A DNA stretch of 64,000 nucleotides from positions 2,304,001 through 2,368,000 of the forward strand of contig OY970194.1 in the NCBI GenBank assembly GCA_963708075.1, written 5' to 3'. The DNA is from Sedimentisphaerales bacterium. Its GTDB lineage: Bacteria; Planctomycetota; Phycisphaerae; Sedimentisphaerales; Anaerobacaceae. The translations under genes and the position numbers were made by a program. This document shows, piece after piece, positions 19,205-37,325 of this stretch. The notes under the pieces were generated by a model. That model ran no database searches. It had not been told where the DNA came from and saw only the letters and a list, made by a program, of their open reading frames with translations. The number at the start of each line of letters is the position of its first letter. Position 1 is the first letter of the stretch.

Positions 19205-19363
19205 TTGGGTTCGTCCCAAGTTGTTGAGTCTTGGGTGGCAGCGTCAAGCGCAGCTTGGCGATGGTCTTGCCCATTCGCCATCGCCAAGGCCTTCGGCCTT
19301 GACGCTGCCACCCGACTGCGCAGCCTGTACAGGCTCGATCTCAAGGATTTGGGACGAACCCAA
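19205..19363. repeat. Composite palindromic element: family A REP inside 15-bp terminal inverted repeats (MITE-like)
   Basis: TTGGGTTCGTCCCAA (19205-19) / TTGGGACGAACCCAA (19349-63) enclose GGGTGGCAGCGTCAAG...CTTGACGCTGCCACCC (19233-19313). Confidence 0.8.
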
Positions 19364-31742: not shown

Positions 31743-31870
31743 GACAACCAGATTATCTTCACAGACCTGACTGGGGCAAAGTGCTGGGCATTGCCTTTGG
31801 GCCCGCAATGAGGTAGTGTGACGGAATATCATAAATGCATGAGCATTCATCACGTCACAGGGAACGAGTG

Positions 31871-34195
31871 ATGTCGAAAGATGGGCATACACAAGTCATT
31901 CCGGCAGTTGTCCTGATGCTGTTGTGCGGTATCAGCCTTGCTCGCGCCGGCGGTGCAGACAAAGACGGCGCACTTGACACGATGGTCCGGACGGACTGGG
32001 CCGCTCAGGAGTTCAGGCACGACAGATCGCCACAGGACCCCGCCGCGATTGCAGATGCATATCGGCGGGCTCACGCGCTCCTTGGAGGCCTGCGGGGACA
32101 GGTTCCTTTGGAGAAGGAGGCTGCAGAGCTTGAGGCACTCGGGGCGAGGGCGTCGCAAGTGGATGACATGGACAAGGCCGCTCGCGAAGCTTTGTACCAG
32201 CAGATCCGGTCCGTGACTCGCAGCATCGCCCTGAGGAACCCGCTGATCGCGGGCAAGCCAATCACGTTCATGAAGCGGCGTCGATTCATCTGCCAGATGC
32301 TCCACGAGTACCTCGGCTACTTCTACGATTACGGCGACATCGCCGGCGGAGGGGTCTATGTCCTCAGGGAGCCGGGGCGATCTCTCGACGTGCAGGACCT
32401 GATCGCCGGCCGCTTGCCCAAAGGCAATTACACGACTCTTGCGTTGTCCTACGACGCCAAGACCGTGTATTTCGCCTTTGCCGAGCGGGCCGAGACCAAG
32501 CCGGACTACTACTCGCCGCAGCGGAGGTGTTTCCACCTTTATGCCGTCAACATCGATGGGACAAACCTGCGCCAGCTCACCACCGGCTGCAACGACGATT
32601 TCGACCCATGTCCCCTGCCGGATGGCGGCATCGCATTCATGTCCACCCGTCGCGGCGGTTTCGGCCGCTGCCACAATCCCTGGGAGCCGCTGCCCGCCTA
32701 TACCCTGCACCGCATGGATGCCTCGGGCGAGAATGTGCGGATGCTCTCCTTCCACGAGACGAATGAATGGCATCCCGCTGTGCTCAACGACGGCCGGATC
32801 GTTTATACCCGATGGGATTACGTGGACCGCTCGGCGGCAAACTATCACGGCCTGTGGACCAGCAACACGGATGGCACGAACCCAAGCATCCTGTTCGGCA
32901 ACTACACACAGCGAATCAACGCATGCTTTCAAGCCAAGGCTGTTCCCGGCTCGAACAAGGTCGCGTTCATCGCGGGCGCGCACCACGCCGATGTCGGCGG
33001 CTCGCTCGTGCTCGTGGACCCGGACAAGTACCGGCTCGATCCTGTCACCGGCGAGGACCGCTTTGAGTCGGTCGAAGAACTGACGCCGGAGGTGTGCTTC
33101 CCGGAGGGTGTCGGCTGGCCGAAGAGCTATTTCCACAGTCCGTGGCCGCTCTCGGAGGACTACTTCCTCATCGCGTTCAGTCACAAGCCGCTGCCCGGCA
33201 TGGGCTCCAACGTCAAGGACGACAATTACACGGGTTTGTACTACTTTGACCGGTTCGGCAACCTGGAGTTGCTGTACCAGGACCCGGATTTCTCCTGCAT
33301 GTACCCGGTTCCGCTGCAGCCCCGCCCGCGGCCCCCAGTGCTTGCGGGCACGCTCGATCCGGAACTTGGCGACGAAGGCGAGTTCATCCTGACGGACGTC
33401 CGCCAGAGCTTCTTCCCCCTGCCGGTTTCGCGCCCCATCCGGCAATTGCGGATCTTTCAGGTGCTTCCGAAGACGGCCACGCACGTTGCGAATCAGCCCC
33501 GGCTGGGCCACGCCAACGCCGAGAGCGCCCGCATGTTGCTCGGGACAGTCCCGGTCGAGACGGATGGCTCCGCGTACTTCCGCGCCCCGGCCGGCAGGCC
33601 GGTCTACTTCCAGGCCGTGGACGAGGCCGGACACGCCGTGCAGACGATGCGCAGCGTCACCTACCTGCAGCCGGGAGAGCGACGCAGTTGCCTCGGCTGC
33701 CACGAGCCTTTCGGGACCGCCTCGGCCCGCAACAACAGAATCCAGGCCCTGAGGCGACGACCTTCCCGAATCGAGCCCGGCCCGGAAGGCACGCGTCCCA
33801 TGAGCTATCCACTGCTCGTGCAGCCCGTGCTCGACAGGCATTGCGTCAAGTGTCACGATGCCGGCAAGAGCCCGCCAACTCTCACCGGCGAACCGGCCAA
33901 GACCTTCACCCGATCGTACGAGAGCCTGCGGGAATATGTCCGCTGGTATGAATGGGGTGGCGAATCGATCCAGGAGATCGGGACCCGCCCCGGACACAGC
34001 GGCGCCGATGAGAGCCGGCTGCTGAACGTGCTCGAGGATGCTGCCCACACGGATCAAGTCAATCTGCCGCCGGAGGATTACCTGCGGCTGTGCATCTGGC
34101 TCGATGCGAATGTCCCCTTCTACGGCACCTATGACAACGAGGCCCAATTGGCCCAGAAGGCCGGACAGGCCGTGCCGCCTCCGTCGATCCAATAA
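31871..34195 (+). CDS. HzsA-related secreted beta-propeller protein with two c-type heme motifs
   Basis: DFDPCPLPDG.I.F.STR, DGRIVYTRWDYVDR, LGTVPVE.DGSAYF.AP...YFQAVD..G.AVQ.MRS...QPGE..SCLGCHE; second CxxCH (CVKCH). Confidence 0.85.
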   Translation: MSKDGHTQVIPAVVLMLLCGISLARAGGADKDGALDTMVRTDWAAQEFRHDRSPQDPAAIADAYRRAHALLGGLRGQVPLEKEAAELEALGARASQVDDMDKAAREALYQQIRSVTRSIALRNPLIAGKPITFMKRRRFICQMLHEYLGYFYDYGDIAGGGVYVLREPGRSLDVQDLIAGRLPKGNYTTLALSYDAKTVYFAFAERAETKPDYYSPQRRCFHLYAVNIDGTNLRQLTTGCNDDFDPCPLPDGGIAFMSTRRGGFGRCHNPWEPLPAYTLHRMDASGENVRMLSFHETNEWHPAVLNDGRIVYTRWDYVDRSAANYHGLWTSNTDGTNPSILFGNYTQRINACFQAKAVPGSNKVAFIAGAHHADVGGSLVLVDPDKYRLDPVTGEDRFESVEELTPEVCFPEGVGWPKSYFHSPWPLSEDYFLIAFSHKPLPGMGSNVKDDNYTGLYYFDRFGNLELLYQDPDFSCMYPVPLQPRPRPPVLAGTLDPELGDEGEFILTDVRQSFFPLPVSRPIRQLRIFQVLPKTATHVANQPRLGHANAESARMLLGTVPVETDGSAYFRAPAGRPVYFQAVDEAGHAVQTMRSVTYLQPGERRSCLGCHEPFGTASARNNRIQALRRRPSRIEPGPEGTRPMSYPLLVQPVLDRHCVKCHDAGKSPPTLTGEPAKTFTRSYESLREYVRWYEWGGESIQEIGTRPGHSGADESRLLNVLEDAAHTDQVNLPPEDYLRLCIWLDANVPFYGTYDNEAQLAQKAGQAVPPPSIQ

Positions 34196-34277: not shown

Positions 34278-35465
34278 ATGAACCTCAACTTTGCGCTTTA
34301 TATGCCTGCACGGGTCCTCTTTGGATGCGGGAAGCTCAAAGAACTGGGCACGACCCCGTTCCTGCCCGGCAGGAAAGCCCTGATCGTGATCGGCGCCTCG
34401 GGCGCCATGAGAAAGCAAGGGTATCTCGACACGGTCATCAATCTTCTCAAGACCAACGGCACCGAGTCGGTGGTTTACGATAGGATCCAGCCGAACCCGG
34501 TAAGCGAGCATGTTGAGGAAGGCGCTCGGGTCGCACGGGACAACAAGTGCGACTTCGTGGTCGGCTTGGGCGGTGGCAGCACCATCGATTCCTCCAAGAG
34601 CATCGCCGTCATGGCGGTTAACCCCGGCAAGTACTGGGATTACCTCTTTGGCGGCAGCGGCGGCGGCAAGGCGCTGCCAAAGGGCGCACTGCCCATCGTC
34701 GCCATTCCCACCACCGCCGGCACGGGCACCGAGGCCGACCCCTGGACCGTGATCACCAAGACCGATACCAACGAGAAGATCGGCTGGGGCAACCGGTGGA
34801 CGTTTCCGACGCTGTCCATCGTCGATCCCGAGCTGATGGTCAGCGTGCCGCCCGAGCAGACGGCCTACACCGGCATGGATGCGTTCTTTCACTCCGTCGA
34901 GTCCTATCTGGCCACAGTCAATCAGCCGACGAGCGACCACCTTGCCCTTGAGGCCATTCGCCTGATCACCAAGTATCTGCCCATTGCCGTCAAGGACGGC
35001 CGCAACCTGGAGGCTCGGACCAAGCTCGCCTGGGCCAGCACCGAAGCCGGCGTCTGCGAGTCCCTCTCCTGCTGCATCTCGCACCACTCGATGGAGCACG
35101 CGGTCAGCGCGTACTTTCCGAATGTCCCGCATGGGGCAGGTCTGACCATGCTCTCAGTCGCCTATTTCAGCTACCTGGCCGAGCGGAACCCCGCCCGCTT
35201 TCCCGACCTGGCACGAGCCATGGGCGAAAAGATCGACGGCCTGCCCAAAAAGGAACAGGCCATGGCCTTCATCAAGGCCCTCAAAAAGCTCATCAAGAAG
35301 ATCGGCCTGCACCAGCAGAGACTCAGCGACTTCGGCATCCAGCGGGACGACCTGCGGAAACTCGCCGAGAACTCATTCTACGCCATGGGCAAGCTGTTCG
35401 ACCTGACGCCGGTAAAGCTGACCGTTGACGACGCCACCGCCATCTACGAGCGGGCCTACACGTAG
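34278..35465 (+). CDS. Iron-containing alcohol dehydrogenase
   Basis: GLGGGS.IDS.K, PTTAGTGTE, D.FFH..E, H.MEH, PHG. Confidence 0.93.
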   Translation: MNLNFALYMPARVLFGCGKLKELGTTPFLPGRKALIVIGASGAMRKQGYLDTVINLLKTNGTESVVYDRIQPNPVSEHVEEGARVARDNKCDFVVGLGGGSTIDSSKSIAVMAVNPGKYWDYLFGGSGGGKALPKGALPIVAIPTTAGTGTEADPWTVITKTDTNEKIGWGNRWTFPTLSIVDPELMVSVPPEQTAYTGMDAFFHSVESYLATVNQPTSDHLALEAIRLITKYLPIAVKDGRNLEARTKLAWASTEAGVCESLSCCISHHSMEHAVSAYFPNVPHGAGLTMLSVAYFSYLAERNPARFPDLARAMGEKIDGLPKKEQAMAFIKALKKLIKKIGLHQQRLSDFGIQRDDLRKLAENSFYAMGKLFDLTPVKLTVDDATAIYERAYT

Positions 35466-35556
35466 GGAGTCGCCCGGAGTCGCGCCCCGCCTGTGATGAG
35501 GGTGCGATCGGCAGTCGGTGGCGGATTCGAGCCGCGTTGCCGGTCCCTCCCGTCGA

Positions 35557-37011
35557 TCAGTACGAGCGGGCGATGTCATGGCAGTGGTACGCGACCCGCG
35601 GCCGAGCCCGCAGCACCACCCCGGCGGCAGGCCTGCGCCGTTGGCTTTGTTTCGTGTTGCCGTCCCCGTTCGTAGTGACGCCGCAAGGCGTTTGGCGGCA
35701 AGTGTCAAGTGCAGGCTCACCGCTTGACACTTGACACTTCAAACTTGAGACTCCCCCCTGAATTGGCTTTGTTTCGCACGGTGTATCCTCGCGGGCTGAG
35801 CCGGTCCCACCTGGCACTTCTTGCGATGGGCTTTGTTTCGCAGAATCCGTTTCGCAGGGTGGGCTGTGTCCACCTTCCACCGCCACAGATTGGCTTTGTT
35901 TCGCACAGTCGCTTACGACAGTATGGGTGGCAGCGTCAAGCGCAGCTTGGCGATGGTCTTCCTGAGGCTCCTCGAATTGGCTTTGTTTCCCAGAATCGCT
36001 CGTGCCCTCCCGGGTGGCAGCGTCAAGCGAAGCTTGGCGATGGTCTTCCTGAGGCTCCTCGAATTGGCTTTGTTTCCCAGAATCGCTCGTGCCCTCCCGG
36101 GTGGCAGCGTCAAGCGAAGCTTGGCGATGGTCTTCCTGAGGCTCCTCGAATTGGCTTCGTTTCACAGAATCGTTCGTCCCCTGCTGGGTGGCAGCGTCAA
36201 GCGAAGCTTGGCGATGGTCTTCCCGAGGCTCCTCGAATTGGCTTTGTTTCACAGAATCGCTCGTCCCCTCCCGGGTGGCAGCGTCAAGCACAGCTTGGCG
36301 ATGGTCTTCCCGAGGCTCCTCGAATTGGCTTTGTTTCGCAGAATCGCTCGTCCCCTGCTGGGTGGCAGCGGCAAGCGCATGCTTGCCGATGGCGTCAGGA
36401 TGCAGCCCAACACCATCGGCAAGCTCCGCAGGCTGCGCTTGCCGCTGCCACCCGTCGTGATTCCTCAAATTGTGCGAACTCGATGCCCCGTGCCCGTCCT
36501 GCCCTTCTTGCTCCCGCCGGACCTGCCGCAGTTCCTTCATCGTCCTGTACAGGCTGCTCTCGATCCGACGTTCGTGCATCGCCAGCCGGTCGAGGGTCCT
36601 TGTCTCGGCGAAGTCCCGTGCGACCGCCCGCCCGAAGGCCAACTCGGCCCTGGCCGATGGATCGCGGTTCTCACGGCGGCACTTGACCCAGTCGTCGCCG
36701 CGATCCGCTTCGATGAGATAATCGAGGGCCTCATCCTGCATGCGTTCGGCCCGTTTGAGCCGCCACCACAAGGCCACGATGCGTTCCGCCATCGCCTCTT
36801 CCTCCGGCCCATCCGGGTCCAGCTTCCGGAGCATCCGGGTGCGGTGCAGCTCGAATTCCTGCGGATCTTCGTTTCTGAGCACGGCCTGGCGGGCCCACAG
36901 GCCATGCTTGACGGCGTTCTGGGCCGCGACGGCCTTGCCCTCCGACGTGCGGGGTCCGGTGGATTTGGCGGCGTTACGACGGTTGGCGGCGACTCGTGCC
37001 TGGCTACCCAT
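35557..37011 (-). CDS. Hypothetical protein ('AANRRNA..STGPRT..GK.....NA.KHGL' N-terminus) with repetitive C-terminal tail
   Basis: Globular/helical N-terminal region of about 190 aa, then low-complexity repeats including five 29-aa units DS.KQSQFEEP.EDHRQA.LDAAT..GT. Confidence 0.7.
   Translation of the reverse strand: MGSQARVAANRRNAAKSTGPRTSEGKAVAAQNAVKHGLWARQAVLRNEDPQEFELHRTRMLRKLDPDGPEEEAMAERIVALWWRLKRAERMQDEALDYLIEADRGDDWVKCRRENRDPSARAELAFGRAVARDFAETRTLDRLAMHERRIESSLYRTMKELRQVRREQEGQDGHGASSSHNLRNHDGWQRQAQPAELADGVGLHPDAIGKHALAAATQQGTSDSAKQSQFEEPREDHRQAVLDAATREGTSDSVKQSQFEEPREDHRQASLDAATQQGTNDSVKRSQFEEPQEDHRQASLDAATREGTSDSGKQSQFEEPQEDHRQASLDAATREGTSDSGKQSQFEEPQEDHRQAALDAATHTVVSDCAKQSQSVAVEGGHSPPCETDSAKQSPSQEVPGGTGSAREDTPCETKPIQGGVSSLKCQVSSGEPALDTCRQTPCGVTTNGDGNTKQSQRRRPAAGVVLRARPRVAYHCHDIARSY
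35641..36453. repeat. Motif-spacer array including 87-bp tandem repeats
   Basis: TTGGCTTTGTTTC(GCA)-like motif at 35641, 35763, 35827, 35890, 35977, 36064, 36151, 36238, 36325; 87-bp period from 35890; family A REP half-copies at 35925, 36012, 36099, 36186, 36273 and a full copy at 36360-36453. Confidence 0.92.
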
Positions 37012-37030
37012 GGGAAACCTCCGGAATCTA

Positions 37031-37058
37031 TGATTTTTGATGTTTGATTTTTGATTTG
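37031..37058. repeat. Heptamer tandem repeat (TGATTTT)x4, degenerate
   Basis: TGATTTT TGATGTT TGATTTT TGATTTG, 20 nt upstream of the ATG at 37011. Confidence 0.75.
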
Positions 37059-37325
37059 AACATGGCCGCAGGCCTGTCGGGCGCGCCGGCGCCCGGTGAG
37101 ACGTGGTCATCAGACCATATAATAGAGACGCCCCAGAGGGCGAAATGTTTCAGGAATTTCTGTTCTATGACAAACTATCTGCAAGTGCCTGTGGCCGCAG
37201 AACTTATGCCCTATTTTTTGCATGGTAAGCCGCAGCCCGTGGGATGGGCTTCAGCCCATGCAGATAGTCTGGGAGTTGCCGGAGAAGAACTGCGAGTCAG
37301 CGTCGCCAGATTTGGAGAACGAAGG

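Follow-up and report, generated by a model that had tools for sequence, protein, structure and literature searches.

The window, a 64,000-nt stretch of a Sedimentisphaerales bacterium genome (contig OY970194.1), carries on its minus strand an open reading frame in which a conserved helical domain is followed by an array of short motifs separated by variable spacers (Table 1). An alternative in-frame ATG at position 37110 would extend this frame to 517 aa. The nine motif copies start exactly where originally predicted, and the GTAG hairpin, the heptamer arms, the GGTGGG/TCCACC hairpin, and the family-A copies called in the same prediction were all confirmed. The 87-bp units represent one unit duplicated in tandem (94–96% alike in 193-nt windows), and five of the eight spacers are thus recent duplicates, leaving about four different spacers in the window rather than eight. 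The complete family-A doublet belongs to another subfamily than the five halves and sits in frame between domain and array, while the family-A REP of the array units also borders two RAYT-like genes, among 13 Y1_Tnp matches in the genome. The leader includes a heptamer run resembling the 3′ arm of a four-helix-bundle cassette in the same genome, a TGAAAC-N16-GCGTC box that we take to be of the ECF-sigma type, and an A-tract with a palindrome marking the left end of the element.

Table 1 Features of the locus, in window coordinates.
Feature	Position	Strand	Remarks
Whole ORF, 484 aa	35557..37011	-	Reads through the entire array; starts at an ATG behind GGAGG
Conserved ~170-aa all-helical domain	36502..37011	-	Unnamed family
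Array of nine motif copies	35641..36336	-	Gene-sense consensus TGCGAAACAAAGCCAATT
Motif 12-nt cores	35641, 35763, 35827, 35890, 35977, 36064, 36151, 36238, 36325	-	
Five tandem 87-bp units	35925..36305	-	One GTGG-tagged family-A REP each
Family-A REP halves	35925-35957, 36012-36044, 36099-36131, 36186-36218, 36273-36305	-	
Complete family-A REP doublet (full palindrome)	36360..36453	.	Fold z = -7.9
Degenerate GTAG-type REP (GGTGGGC..GCCCACC class)	35854..35874	+	In a 63-bp unit
Inverted heptamer arms (TGTCAAG / CTTGACA class)	35700..35751 (35700-35711 + 35723-35751)	.	
GTAG-tagged REP (GTAGTGACGCC class), GTAG-led hairpin	35672..35692	+	Tag faces away from gene sense
Conserved right end	35500..35640	-	Common to seven related elements; similarity ends at ~35500
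Heptamer run (AAATCAA class)	37027..37058	-	In leader
Promoter-like TGAAAC-N16-GCGTC	37124..37154	-	
A-tract + TAAG...CTTG palindrome (IHF-like)	37181..37221	-	~55 bp before the -35-like box
GTGG-tagged REP	37239..37261	+	Just outside the left end; same polarity as array REPs

The gene is not the orphan it had been taken for: the family occupies nine loci in the source genome, and 24,963 representatives were found (clusters at 50% identity, E ≤ 1e-3). This family is very large, unnamed, and bacterial, with neither profile nor structure in the libraries searched. For the query and 130 homologues, no Pfam, NCBIfam (including the HGGxSTG cut-off), or PHROGs family exceeded threshold, although one member did match a terminase-small-subunit PHROG below it (E 0.027). 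NF041373 (HGGxSTG domain, Cys/HGG zinc finger) did not match the gene copies of the source genome, a PDB sequence search with the query gave a best E of 1.3, and the ESM Atlas returned only unnamed clusters, with SEC-C at 0.79 as the nearest named entry. The predicted homodimer score was 0.02. Fold searches with 171-aa and 103-aa models yielded no clear match and generic helical similarity only (best Z 8.1 and 6.4), an outcome that indicates neither a new nor a different fold. Nuclease, recombinase, or nucleic-acid-binding folds had been put forward as candidates: these searches found no fold of the first two types. The N-terminal module resembles phage small terminases. Specifically, hhalign against a small-terminase family reached 98.5% for residues 16–90, and 96–98.5% over residues 3–44, 17–41, 16–58, or 16–90, i.e., across the N-terminal part only, and the protein beyond residue 41 alone was not significant (score 15.7; shuffled controls ≤17.4). 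This suggests that a phage small-terminase module has been recruited into a chromosomal element.

Within the domain, His36, Trp83, Arg84, and Arg87 are invariant or near-invariant (in an alignment in which the search pattern biases the first 22 residues). Position 146 is a His in the window protein and a Tyr in most homologues (42/47 near and 33/36 far aligned rows), including those without the N-terminal module. The predicted model places this Tyr in a long coiled helix, and the most recently duplicated gene copies of the genome carry the His. Purifying selection acts on the domain (pN/pS about 0.3 among close paralogues), and read-through of the array is selected as well, since seven of eight intact genes are open across it (four of them recent paralogues, with the gene of array A19 stopping in the last unit) versus 4/81 frames in gene-less arrays. 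No fused Pfam domain appeared in the 120 rows listed for longer homologues. Likewise, the 141 neighbouring ORFs from 80 loci (the longest per side, trimmed to 320 aa; many of them have no Pfam match) included no conserved neighbour and no Cas, phage-integrase, or terminase family, in line with the earlier remark that cas and intI are lacking. Phage and plasmid collections contain almost no members (two weak records each; none of 50,697 phage records matches with 80% coverage). When 120 further genomes from the phylum were screened in a limited first search, 7 had the gene, and gene number ranges from 0 to 23 per genome within one genus.

We next consider the 16-base motif, which reads TGCGAAACAAAGCCAAT in gene sense. 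Exact AAACRAASCCAA occurs 268 times in the genome against 1.5 expected under an order-4 Markov model, and its reversed control once. The genome holds 41 motif arrays, all one-directional, and 32 of these have no gene, which shows that the array is more than a slippage-expanded linker. The recurrence of the motif beside homologues, an expectation of the original prediction, was seen at 65 of 80 loci in several phyla. At these loci, the motif is read in frames 0, 1, and 2 on 19, 29, and 19 occasions, respectively, and 64 of the 131 copies are located beyond the first stop codon, so that a hypervariable protein tail, as had been proposed, fails as the main function. Inverted motif pairs enclose cargo in 10 loci, and five further loci have reverse copies only. 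Taken together, the use of all frames and the past-stop and inverted copies imply that the motif is a nucleic-acid site, probably on DNA. In four viral-collection contigs the motif lies 31–32 nt before the ATG, once with a reverse copy after the stop as well; elsewhere, inverted pairs are found inside or after the gene, and around it in one case. Gene and motif counts per genome are correlated (Spearman 0.86 over 31 genomes and 0.75 over 19 of the genus, kin not being independent), with one genome holding over 1,100 motif copies and gene counts reaching 23.

The motif itself is neither a palindrome nor a hairpin, and no stem was detected around it (2.94 vs 2.97 in shuffles); Rfam likewise gave no family over threshold and sub-threshold hairpin matches only. 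Units measure 23–375 nt, with gene-free spacers mostly of 20–150 nt, and motif cores are better conserved than linkers in unit classes with at least three members. In genome G156, an IHF consensus with at most one mismatch lies after 24 of 47 motifs, nearly always at +19/20 (shuffles: mean 0.9, maximum 4), and in G157 it lies after 5 of 8. Of 54 units measuring 88–93 bp, 29 have a TAA..TTA palindrome at +35/36, and Phycisphaerae have an IHF-like palindrome only, not the IHF consensus. Inverted copies and the phased IHF site both point to DNA. The ECF-type promoter-like box precedes 16/41 arrays, with and without gene, and sigma70-like boxes precede others; this leader is not universal: a strict pattern recovers it at 5/76 loci with homologues (background 4%). 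A GTGG-tagged REP with the array polarity accompanies 7/16 leaders, and one with the opposite polarity 0/16 (background 7%). Downstream, the next gene is co-oriented in 30/41 arrays, and a sigma70-like box lies within 150 nt of 9/32 gene-less arrays (background 1.8%). No replichore bias was observed (16/41), and neither a terminal inverted repeat nor a target duplication could be seen by eye in six left and seven right paralogous flanks.

The proposal that spacers carry pieces of the genome's own repeats also held up, as spacers match the repeats of their own host better than those of another. Genome-wide, REP tags face opposite to gene sense in 41 vs 8 spacers and 26 vs 7 arrays, with polarities of 25:0 for GCGGART, 11:0 for the GACGCC-REP, and 19:2 for family A. 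The 252 units form 116 classes, of which the largest has 38 members; units are duplicated in tandem and common to several arrays, and 10 of 12 classes with at least three members hold recognisable host repeats or a palindrome when inspected by eye. After dereplication, 17/101 classes were repeat-rich, which is the rate of random intergenic DNA (29–36/230), the control used once copies had been merged, as random genome pieces (11/230 with ≥5 matches) are too lenient. Family-A REPs are present in 19 of 24 congeneric genomes and joined to the motif in only three; in G006 and G031, none of 315 and 405 copies, respectively, is so joined. Arrays vary, as expected from the original prediction, both among paralogues, whose arrays differ, and among congeners, in which the element is polymorphic: the element after Fe-ADH was absent in 11/11 congeners examined and array A13 in 13/13. 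Joints at motif positions in contigs of four DNA runs were set aside, as these contigs come from relatives and paralogues and have short sides. Since repeat-rich classes occur at the intergenic rate and the common REP is mostly uncaptured in REP-rich congeners, the CRISPR- or integron-like acquisition memory first envisaged is not supported: repeats are captured sporadically, the units are copied and swapped afterwards, and the result is not an adaptive memory.

Overall, the locus resembles a mobile element of a type not yet described more than it does a CRISPR-like memory. The reading we favour, tentatively and at somewhat less than an even chance, is a gene-plus-cognate-site element that spreads within genomes and hitchhikes on the REP/RAYT machinery. 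The protein would bind the motif on DNA through its terminase-like module, IHF would bend the DNA, and the two would build a nucleoprotein site. Because the protein has no known catalytic fold, cutting and joining would be supplied in trans, most plausibly by the host RAYT (HUH) enzymes. Acting near REP hairpins on single strands and leaving no target duplication, these would bring single REP ends into linkers and would carry elements or units into further intergenic sites rich in REPs. Capture would happen occasionally. Units bearing a REP or heptamer arm would afterwards be favoured when recombination or slippage at the motif makes copies, which would give mosaic, BIME-like arrays, and the translated tail would be a by-product kept open in gene-bearing copies rather than a function. 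Several observations run against this element reading. G144 (91% complete) has 32 motifs as short inverted hairpins with no gene found, G158 has the gene without the exact motif, REP polarity is weak in G013 (8 vs 5 of 55), and G000, G013, G155, and G159 show no enrichment of the IHF consensus and have only the looser palindrome. Moreover, RAYT action cannot explain heptamer arms or palindrome units, the selection for read-through counts against this reading, one-directional arrays behind promoter-like leaders would suit an RNA role, and the near-invariant Tyr leaves open that the protein itself may be catalytic.

A bolder possibility, which we judge unlikely, is that the family forms a self-encoded capture system relying on a new chemistry or guide principle. 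Here, the Tyr/His/Arg set or a recruited partner would take each mobile-repeat family of the host (RAYT REPs, four-helix-bundle and GxxExxY heptamer arms, GIY-YIG repeats) and attach one of its ends beside the motif at an IHF-bent site. The catalogue built up in this way, once transcribed from a stress promoter, would direct or dampen the repeat-moving enzymes. Such a programmable array aimed at self repeats would have no relation to Cas, IntI, or HUH proteins and would go back to a phage packaging protein. Rather unlikely, in our view, is that the arrays are RNA guides or decoys with their own promoters, in which the protein would bind single-stranded motif RNA and each unit would show one repeat arm, pairing with REP transcripts or single-stranded DNA, or titrating RAYT, four-helix-bundle, or IHF-like proteins. 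The uniform direction of all 41 arrays, the leaders before them, the polar and host-specific cargo, the conservation of cores over linkers, and the maintained read-through would all fit such a role; however, 15 loci have inverted-only or inverted-pair motif copies, the IHF-consensus site is phased, the motif lacks a stem or Rfam family, unit diversity equals the intergenic background, and the commonest REP is uncaptured in most REP-rich congeners.

The terminase likeness raises the question of a packaging-signal mimic, to which we give a slim likelihood. The protein would be a free-living small-terminase relative, and motif-IHF-motif units would act as cosB/pac-like sites recruiting a phage or GTA large terminase, resulting in host DNA packaging from many chromosomal sites. 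Its N-terminal module is common to genes preceding large terminases, locus L157 matches Pfam Terminase_4 with phrog_2 as the next ORF, and L160 matches phrog_9231/1889/509; lambda cosB, as described in PMC4856287, has TerS sites flanking an IHF site like the 90-bp unit. Yet the region after residue 41 alone has no significant match to that terminase family, no terminase occurs among the 141 neighbours, members are scarce in phage and plasmid collections, and transduction alone would create neither new loci nor REP cargo. About as slim is the chance that the protein is a new tyrosine strand-transfer enzyme which moves the element and joins hairpin DNA next to the motif, in which case the His-bearing clade of the window may be inactive. 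The conserved Tyr146, retained where the N-terminal module is missing, the accompanying His36, Trp83, Arg84, and Arg87, and the lack of target duplications are what such an enzyme would lead one to expect, but sequence and fold searches revealed no HUH, tyrosine-recombinase, or topoisomerase likeness, the latest duplicates carry His, and a Tyr in a long coiled helix, as modelled, may be structural.

We consider it improbable that this is a domesticated chromosome-organising or regulatory system, for which MatP/matS and Noc are models, and in which the protein would bind dispersed sites and the arrays would cluster it with IHF- and REP-binding proteins near host promoters. The many sites per genome, the downstream sigma70-like boxes, and the co-oriented next genes agree with it, whereas the variable gene number within one genus, the sites not conserved between congeners, the sparse distribution in the phylum (in the limited first search), and the even replichore distribution do not. 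Finally, a slippage-expanded, disordered C-terminal tail into which REPs drifted is very improbable and already largely refuted by the gene-less arrays: the five near-identical 87-bp units, the selected read-through, and the 37/44 in-ORF or nearby motifs of eight unbroken genes in frames 0 or 1 (never frame 2) would suit it, but all frames are used across homologues, half of the copies are non-coding or inverted, and IHF phasing is fixed.

The precise 16-bp site with its phased IHF site makes the family directly testable. As nearly every REP and heptamer repeat family of a host contributes pieces that the arrays contain and swap, the arrays also provide a handle on how such repeats spread and are homogenised, and if capture is protein-driven, they would represent a new class of array-building machinery. 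Literature full-text searches, with subscription journals and bioRxiv supplements outside their scope, gave no description of family or motif; papers containing the motif 12-mer were unrelated by title among the matches listed, and the passages of PMC3174227 consulted mention neither.

Among known systems, small terminases share the N-terminal module (residues 16–90), and lambda cosB (R3-I1-R2-R1; PMC4856287) likewise combines several ~16-bp sites in direct and inverted orientation with an IHF site at a constant distance, in or beside the gene's own sequence. Unlike small terminases, the motif family has no large terminase, portal, or prophage context and no significant C-terminal homology, and its arrays, unlike cosB, are chromosomal and multicopy, with variable cargo between sites. 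CRISPR type I-E (IHF site by the first repeat; PMC5224486) resembles the arrays in its fixed motif, variable spacers, and leader with an IHF-type site, but the motif arrays lack nearby cas (141 neighbours), vary widely in unit length, have spacers that are duplicated and common to several arrays, carry self repeats as cargo, and show no sign of ordered acquisition. Integrons differ in that no intI or phage-integrase family was found among the 141 neighbours, the spacers hold no gene cassettes, and the motif is not an attC-like palindrome, and classical IS or MITEs in that neither TIR nor TSD was seen at aligned paralogous flanks. The domain and fold searches matched no known transposase; the protein carries a conserved Tyr/His/Arg set.

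REPtrons and BIMEs (RAYT/TnpA-REP with REP doublets; PMC3333891 and PMC3733652) also pair a lone gene with a short cognate repeat, have gene-less copies far outnumbering genes, and form intergenic mosaic arrays of variable copy number without target duplication. An IHF site in linkers is a further likeness, the consensus being met in G156 and G157 and an IHF-like palindrome in Phycisphaerae, and the cargo of the motif arrays is REP ends themselves. PMC3333891 also describes how cleavage and strand transfer take place near REPs, how BIMEs are amplified, and that BIME-1 linkers contain IHF sites. The motif family departs from these systems in that its protein has no HUH/Y1 domain (no Y1_Tnp match for query and 130 homologues; all-helical model), its gene reads through the array, and its arrays have their own promoter-like leader. 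Its cognate motif is a non-palindromic 16-mer instead of a tagged hairpin, with only the cargo hairpin-forming (although two inverted motifs do form a hairpin in G144), and many unrelated repeat families are mixed around this one motif. The heptamer-bracketed four-helix-bundle (PF05635) and GxxExxY (PF13366) cassettes are similar in having a small gene, a cognate repeat, and gene-less copies, and for the four-helix-bundle cassette also in having no evident nuclease. These cassettes are framed by inverted heptamer runs, whereas the motif arrays are built on one complex motif accompanied by a phased IHF site, and it is the arms of these very cassettes that the motif arrays collect.

All features listed in the original prediction are present in the sequence at the coordinates given there. 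Of the eight spacers, five are a single 87-bp unit in tandem. Exact copies of AAACRAASCCAA number 268 in the 7.5-Mb genome holding the window (G000), against 1 for the reversed control and 1.5 expected. The subject gene, previously taken for an orphan, belongs to a large family: G000 holds nine loci (one frameshifted), a near-length search returned 609 relatives, and 24,963 representatives were found at E ≤ 1e-3 among 1.84 billion sequences. Matches that have a name come from Sedimentisphaerales and Phycisphaerales, pointing to the likely group of the host. Elsewhere in the window, another half of family A, a REP family of G000, lies between two convergent genes, and a large gene, which we take to resemble hydrazine-synthase-alpha-like proteins, precedes the neighbouring Fe-ADH gene, as it does in G018 and G035.

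Coordinates of features in the window, in G000 and at homologue loci (L)
Feature	Position	Strand	Remarks
Subject ORF	window 37011 to 35557	minus	484 aa
Family A half	window 19233-19265		
Large gene	window 31835-34195	plus	
Fe-ADH gene	window 34278-35465	plus	
Frameshifted gene copy, arrays A29/A30	G000:C1 4778158-4780600		
Gene-less arrays A31, A32, A37, A41	G000:C1 5315222, 5653264, 6334509, 7459742		
RAYT-like genes flanked by family A	G000 4659639, 3708180		
Four-helix-bundle gene	G000 6174215		
Eight Y1_Tnp genes	G000:C1 4612392, 4636918, 6907075, 5283953, 5284480, 478768, 6909572, 481697		tandem pair, 5283953-5284809
P27-type small terminase, then large terminase	L157:1167-2665		viral contig; full ANRxNAKKSTGPRT...NAxKHG N-terminus
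MITE-like element of G144 (example)	L179:2120-2260		

As had been proposed, the motif recurs next to homologues. Among the best 80 of 584 confirmed loci, which by record title cover Phycisphaerae, other Planctomycetota, Acidobacteriota, Alphaproteobacteria, Ignavibacteria and others, 65 carry it 300–1700 nt after the gene start, and 36 carry at least two copies. Of 131 copies, 67 lie within the ORF (19, 29 and 19 by frame) and 64 beyond the first stop. Reverse copies number 17, with an inverted pair enclosing repeat cargo at 10 loci and the reverse form alone at 5. Since the motif occupies all three frames and continues past the stop, conservation lies in the nucleic acid, and since its strand is not fixed, DNA is favoured as the conserved entity. 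We consider it unlikely that the arrays act as an RNA guide or decoy, the inverted copies counting against this. In four viral-collection contigs, the motif lies 31–32 nt upstream of the ATG; it precedes the ATG by 32 nt in L150–L153, and in L150 an inverted motif after the stop (+714) leaves the gene framed by inverted motifs. These upstream copies possibly serve autoregulation or represent true element ends. QIEAN codons at the protein start can spell a one-mismatch copy (L035, L042, L052, L056, L059, L080 and L154; +16/17), which may be chance or the origin of the motif.

Gene and motif numbers are linked across genomes (Spearman coefficient 0.86 over a set of 31 and 0.75 over one of 19, kin not being independent), with 22 gene matches and 1162 motifs in G007, 23 and 810 in G013, and 1–9 motifs in same-order genomes without the gene. 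In other phyla, genes and motifs number 17 and 131 (G156), 7 and 117 (G157), 1 and 18 (G155), 1 and 37 (G159), and 1 and 0 (G158); a limited first look yielded matches in 7 of 120 other genomes of the phylum. The exceptions are two fragmented genomes in which no gene was found, G011 with 19 motifs and the 91% complete G144 with 32. The 32 exact motifs of G144 occur as inverted hairpins, in a dispersed MITE-like element (L178–L181) in which an inverted motif pair forms a hairpin (loop 5–10 nt) ~53 bp past a TAAG palindrome. In six genomes of one family, the homologue lacks the N-module (residues 16–90, resembling phage small terminases) and motif counts are at background, which fits the N-module as the part reading the motif. 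Single-copy homologues without this module in family f36 (L172–L176, from G103, G150, G084, G061 and G135) retain the helical core together with the conserved Tyr, show no motif enrichment, and are possibly a domesticated branch.

The element is polymorphic among relatives. None of the 11 congeneric loci examined has it after Fe-ADH, and four of them (G006, G010, G012 and G013) have motif copies upstream of Fe-ADH instead. Array A13 is lacking from all 13 congeners examined. Close paralogues differ by whole units (motif plus spacer) gained or lost, and a gene-less array has a unit at least 85% alike to units of gene-bearing arrays. Homologues neighbour unrelated housekeeping genes, with two DDE matches, one Y1, one reverse transcriptase, and no Cas, integrase or terminase found among these neighbours. 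Phage and plasmid collections gave two weak records each, and IMG/VR 12 loci.

AlphaFold2 models the protein as all helical (pLDDT 88.9). Family-library and fold searches gave no match, and no nuclease or recombinase fold, for which a test had been suggested, was found. The weakest phage match is a gene preceding a large terminase and matches small-terminase PHROGs. At viral locus L157, a Pfam Terminase_4 protein encoded ahead of a large terminase shares this N-terminus. Profile comparison with a Bacillus-phage small-terminase family gave 98.5% over residues 16–58, extending to 16–90 with a broader alignment; residues 42–171 alone gave no significant match to that family. A packaging-signal mimic modelled on cosB (PMC4856287) would suit this resemblance; with no terminase found among the neighbours examined, it seems improbable. 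The helical domain is under purifying selection, and Tyr146 is near-invariant in the family and His in the subject clade; that the protein is a new tyrosine enzyme, as the near-invariance might suggest, is quite improbable.

The 293 motif copies of G000 (≤2 mismatches) were clustered into 41 arrays with at least two copies, each on a single strand. Nine arrays adjoin a gene copy, 3' of it, and 32 have none; the array of the frameshifted gene copy is apparently split by a ~1.3-kb insertion, and A30, one of the gene-less arrays, is probably the distal portion of A29. A leader common to 16 arrays, gene-bearing and gene-less alike, comprises in order an A-tract, a TAAG...CTTA-type palindrome, ~55 bp, TG(C/A)AAC-N16-GCGTC and TATATGG, the last two of which we take to be a putative ECF-type promoter that would drive transcription. 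The ECF-type leader is not general (5 of 76 homologue loci). Because gene-less arrays share it with gene-bearing ones, they look like deletion derivatives; A31, A32, A37 and A41 each have one fully open sense frame over 580–740 nt. By eye, six left and seven right flanks showed no terminal repeat or target duplication. Seven of 16 leaders have a tagged REP in array polarity at most 140 nt ahead of them, and none has one in the opposite sense, the rate in intergenic DNA being 7% per strand. Congener loci free of an array (L115, L116, L118 and L123, upstream of a helicase-like gene) also have the TAAG...TTA-type palindrome in ordinary promoter regions, and it is thus a general host site.

In 400 kb sampled from G156, the IHF consensus WATCAANNNNTTR (PMC5224486) accompanies 24 of the 47 motifs with ≤1 mismatch, against a mean of 0.9 and a maximum of 4 in shuffles, and is phased, 32 of 38 matches at two mismatches falling at +19 or +20. 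It occurs at 5 of 8 motifs in G157, and the strict consensus is not enriched in G155, G159, G013 or G000. In Phycisphaerae, a loose pattern (TAAST..AAGGRGTTA) lies at +35/36 in 29 of 54 units of 88–93 bp, and a similar palindrome precedes the leader. In G144 it stands ~53 bp ahead of the motif. IHF presumably binds it. A chromosome organiser is very unlikely, sites not being conserved between congeners. Seven of eight gene-bearing copies are open through the array, compared with 4 of 81 frames in gene-less arrays, which is above chance, and read-through might serve to hold the protein in cis while it is being translated; a plain disordered tail, with motif copies past the stop, is scarcely credible.

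Of 230 spacers ≥20 nt in G000, 142 match DNA outside arrays, 99 with at least five matches, versus 70–79 and 29–36 for random intergenic pieces, a raw repeat enrichment of about threefold. The expectation that spacers are stocked with the genome's repeats thus holds for raw counts, but clustering leaves no more than 17 repeat-rich classes out of 101; together with the large classes (38, 19, 16 and 15 members), this indicates that a few units were captured and then widely copied. The anticipated host specificity was found to be reciprocal between G013 and G000: G013 spacer 18-mers have 163 matches in their own 360-kb sample, which consists of array neighbourhoods rather than random DNA, and on average 15 in G000 samples of equal size; spacers of G000 average 696 in their own samples versus 298 in G013. 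G156 agrees (8 of 18 spacers match its own sample, 0 the whole of G000). Family A speaks against an acquisition memory, being present in 19 of 24 congeners and joined to the motif (within 25–55 nt) in three only, where junctions differ and polarity is the same. The donors are real elements, since family A flanks RAYT-like genes (REP-associated Y1_Tnp, HUH), a four-helix-bundle gene lies between GCGGA(A/G)T runs, and next to a GIY-YIG gene is a CGTC-type repeat like those found in array leads. REPs in arrays are mostly single and ordered hairpin-then-tag (41 vs 8 spacers; 26 vs 7 arrays), with one heptamer arm at 25:0. Within a single unit class, differing REP subfamilies occupy the same register, each exact to other genomic copies over 16–25 nt, and motif cores are better conserved than linkers, which suggests repeated exchange or selection. 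Eight Y1_Tnp genes of G000, two of them in tandem, are preceded by short elements other than REPs (e.g., GGGACGGACCC, GGGACAGTCACC, GGGGTCAC and GGGGTCAGGC) and are TIRYT-like by resemblance.

Our leading, still tentative, reading is that the protein would bind the motif on IHF-bent DNA, that element and units would spread with the help of a catalyst acting in trans, the most plausible being RAYT strand transfer beside REPs, and that cargo would be captured now and then, with recombination at the motif multiplying it. The data show the anatomy, linkage, phasing, polarity, host specificity and polymorphism; the binding, the transcription, the catalyst and the direction in which sequence is exchanged are inferred from them. 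REP cleavage 5' or 3', strand transfer, tandem amplification and IHF sites in BIME-1 linkers are described in PMC3333891.

The most similar way of working is that of REPtron/BIME, and the small terminase is the source of the borrowed N-terminal module. Nonetheless, the gene-plus-motif system failed the defining tests of REPtrons, phage terminases, classical IS/MITEs, CRISPR and integrons, the last two having been the architectures originally predicted, and the protein failed those of NF041373. Passages of PMC3733652 report that a few species have REPs linked with other repeats, there without the present motif or protein, and a full-text literature search gave no description of the protein family or motif.
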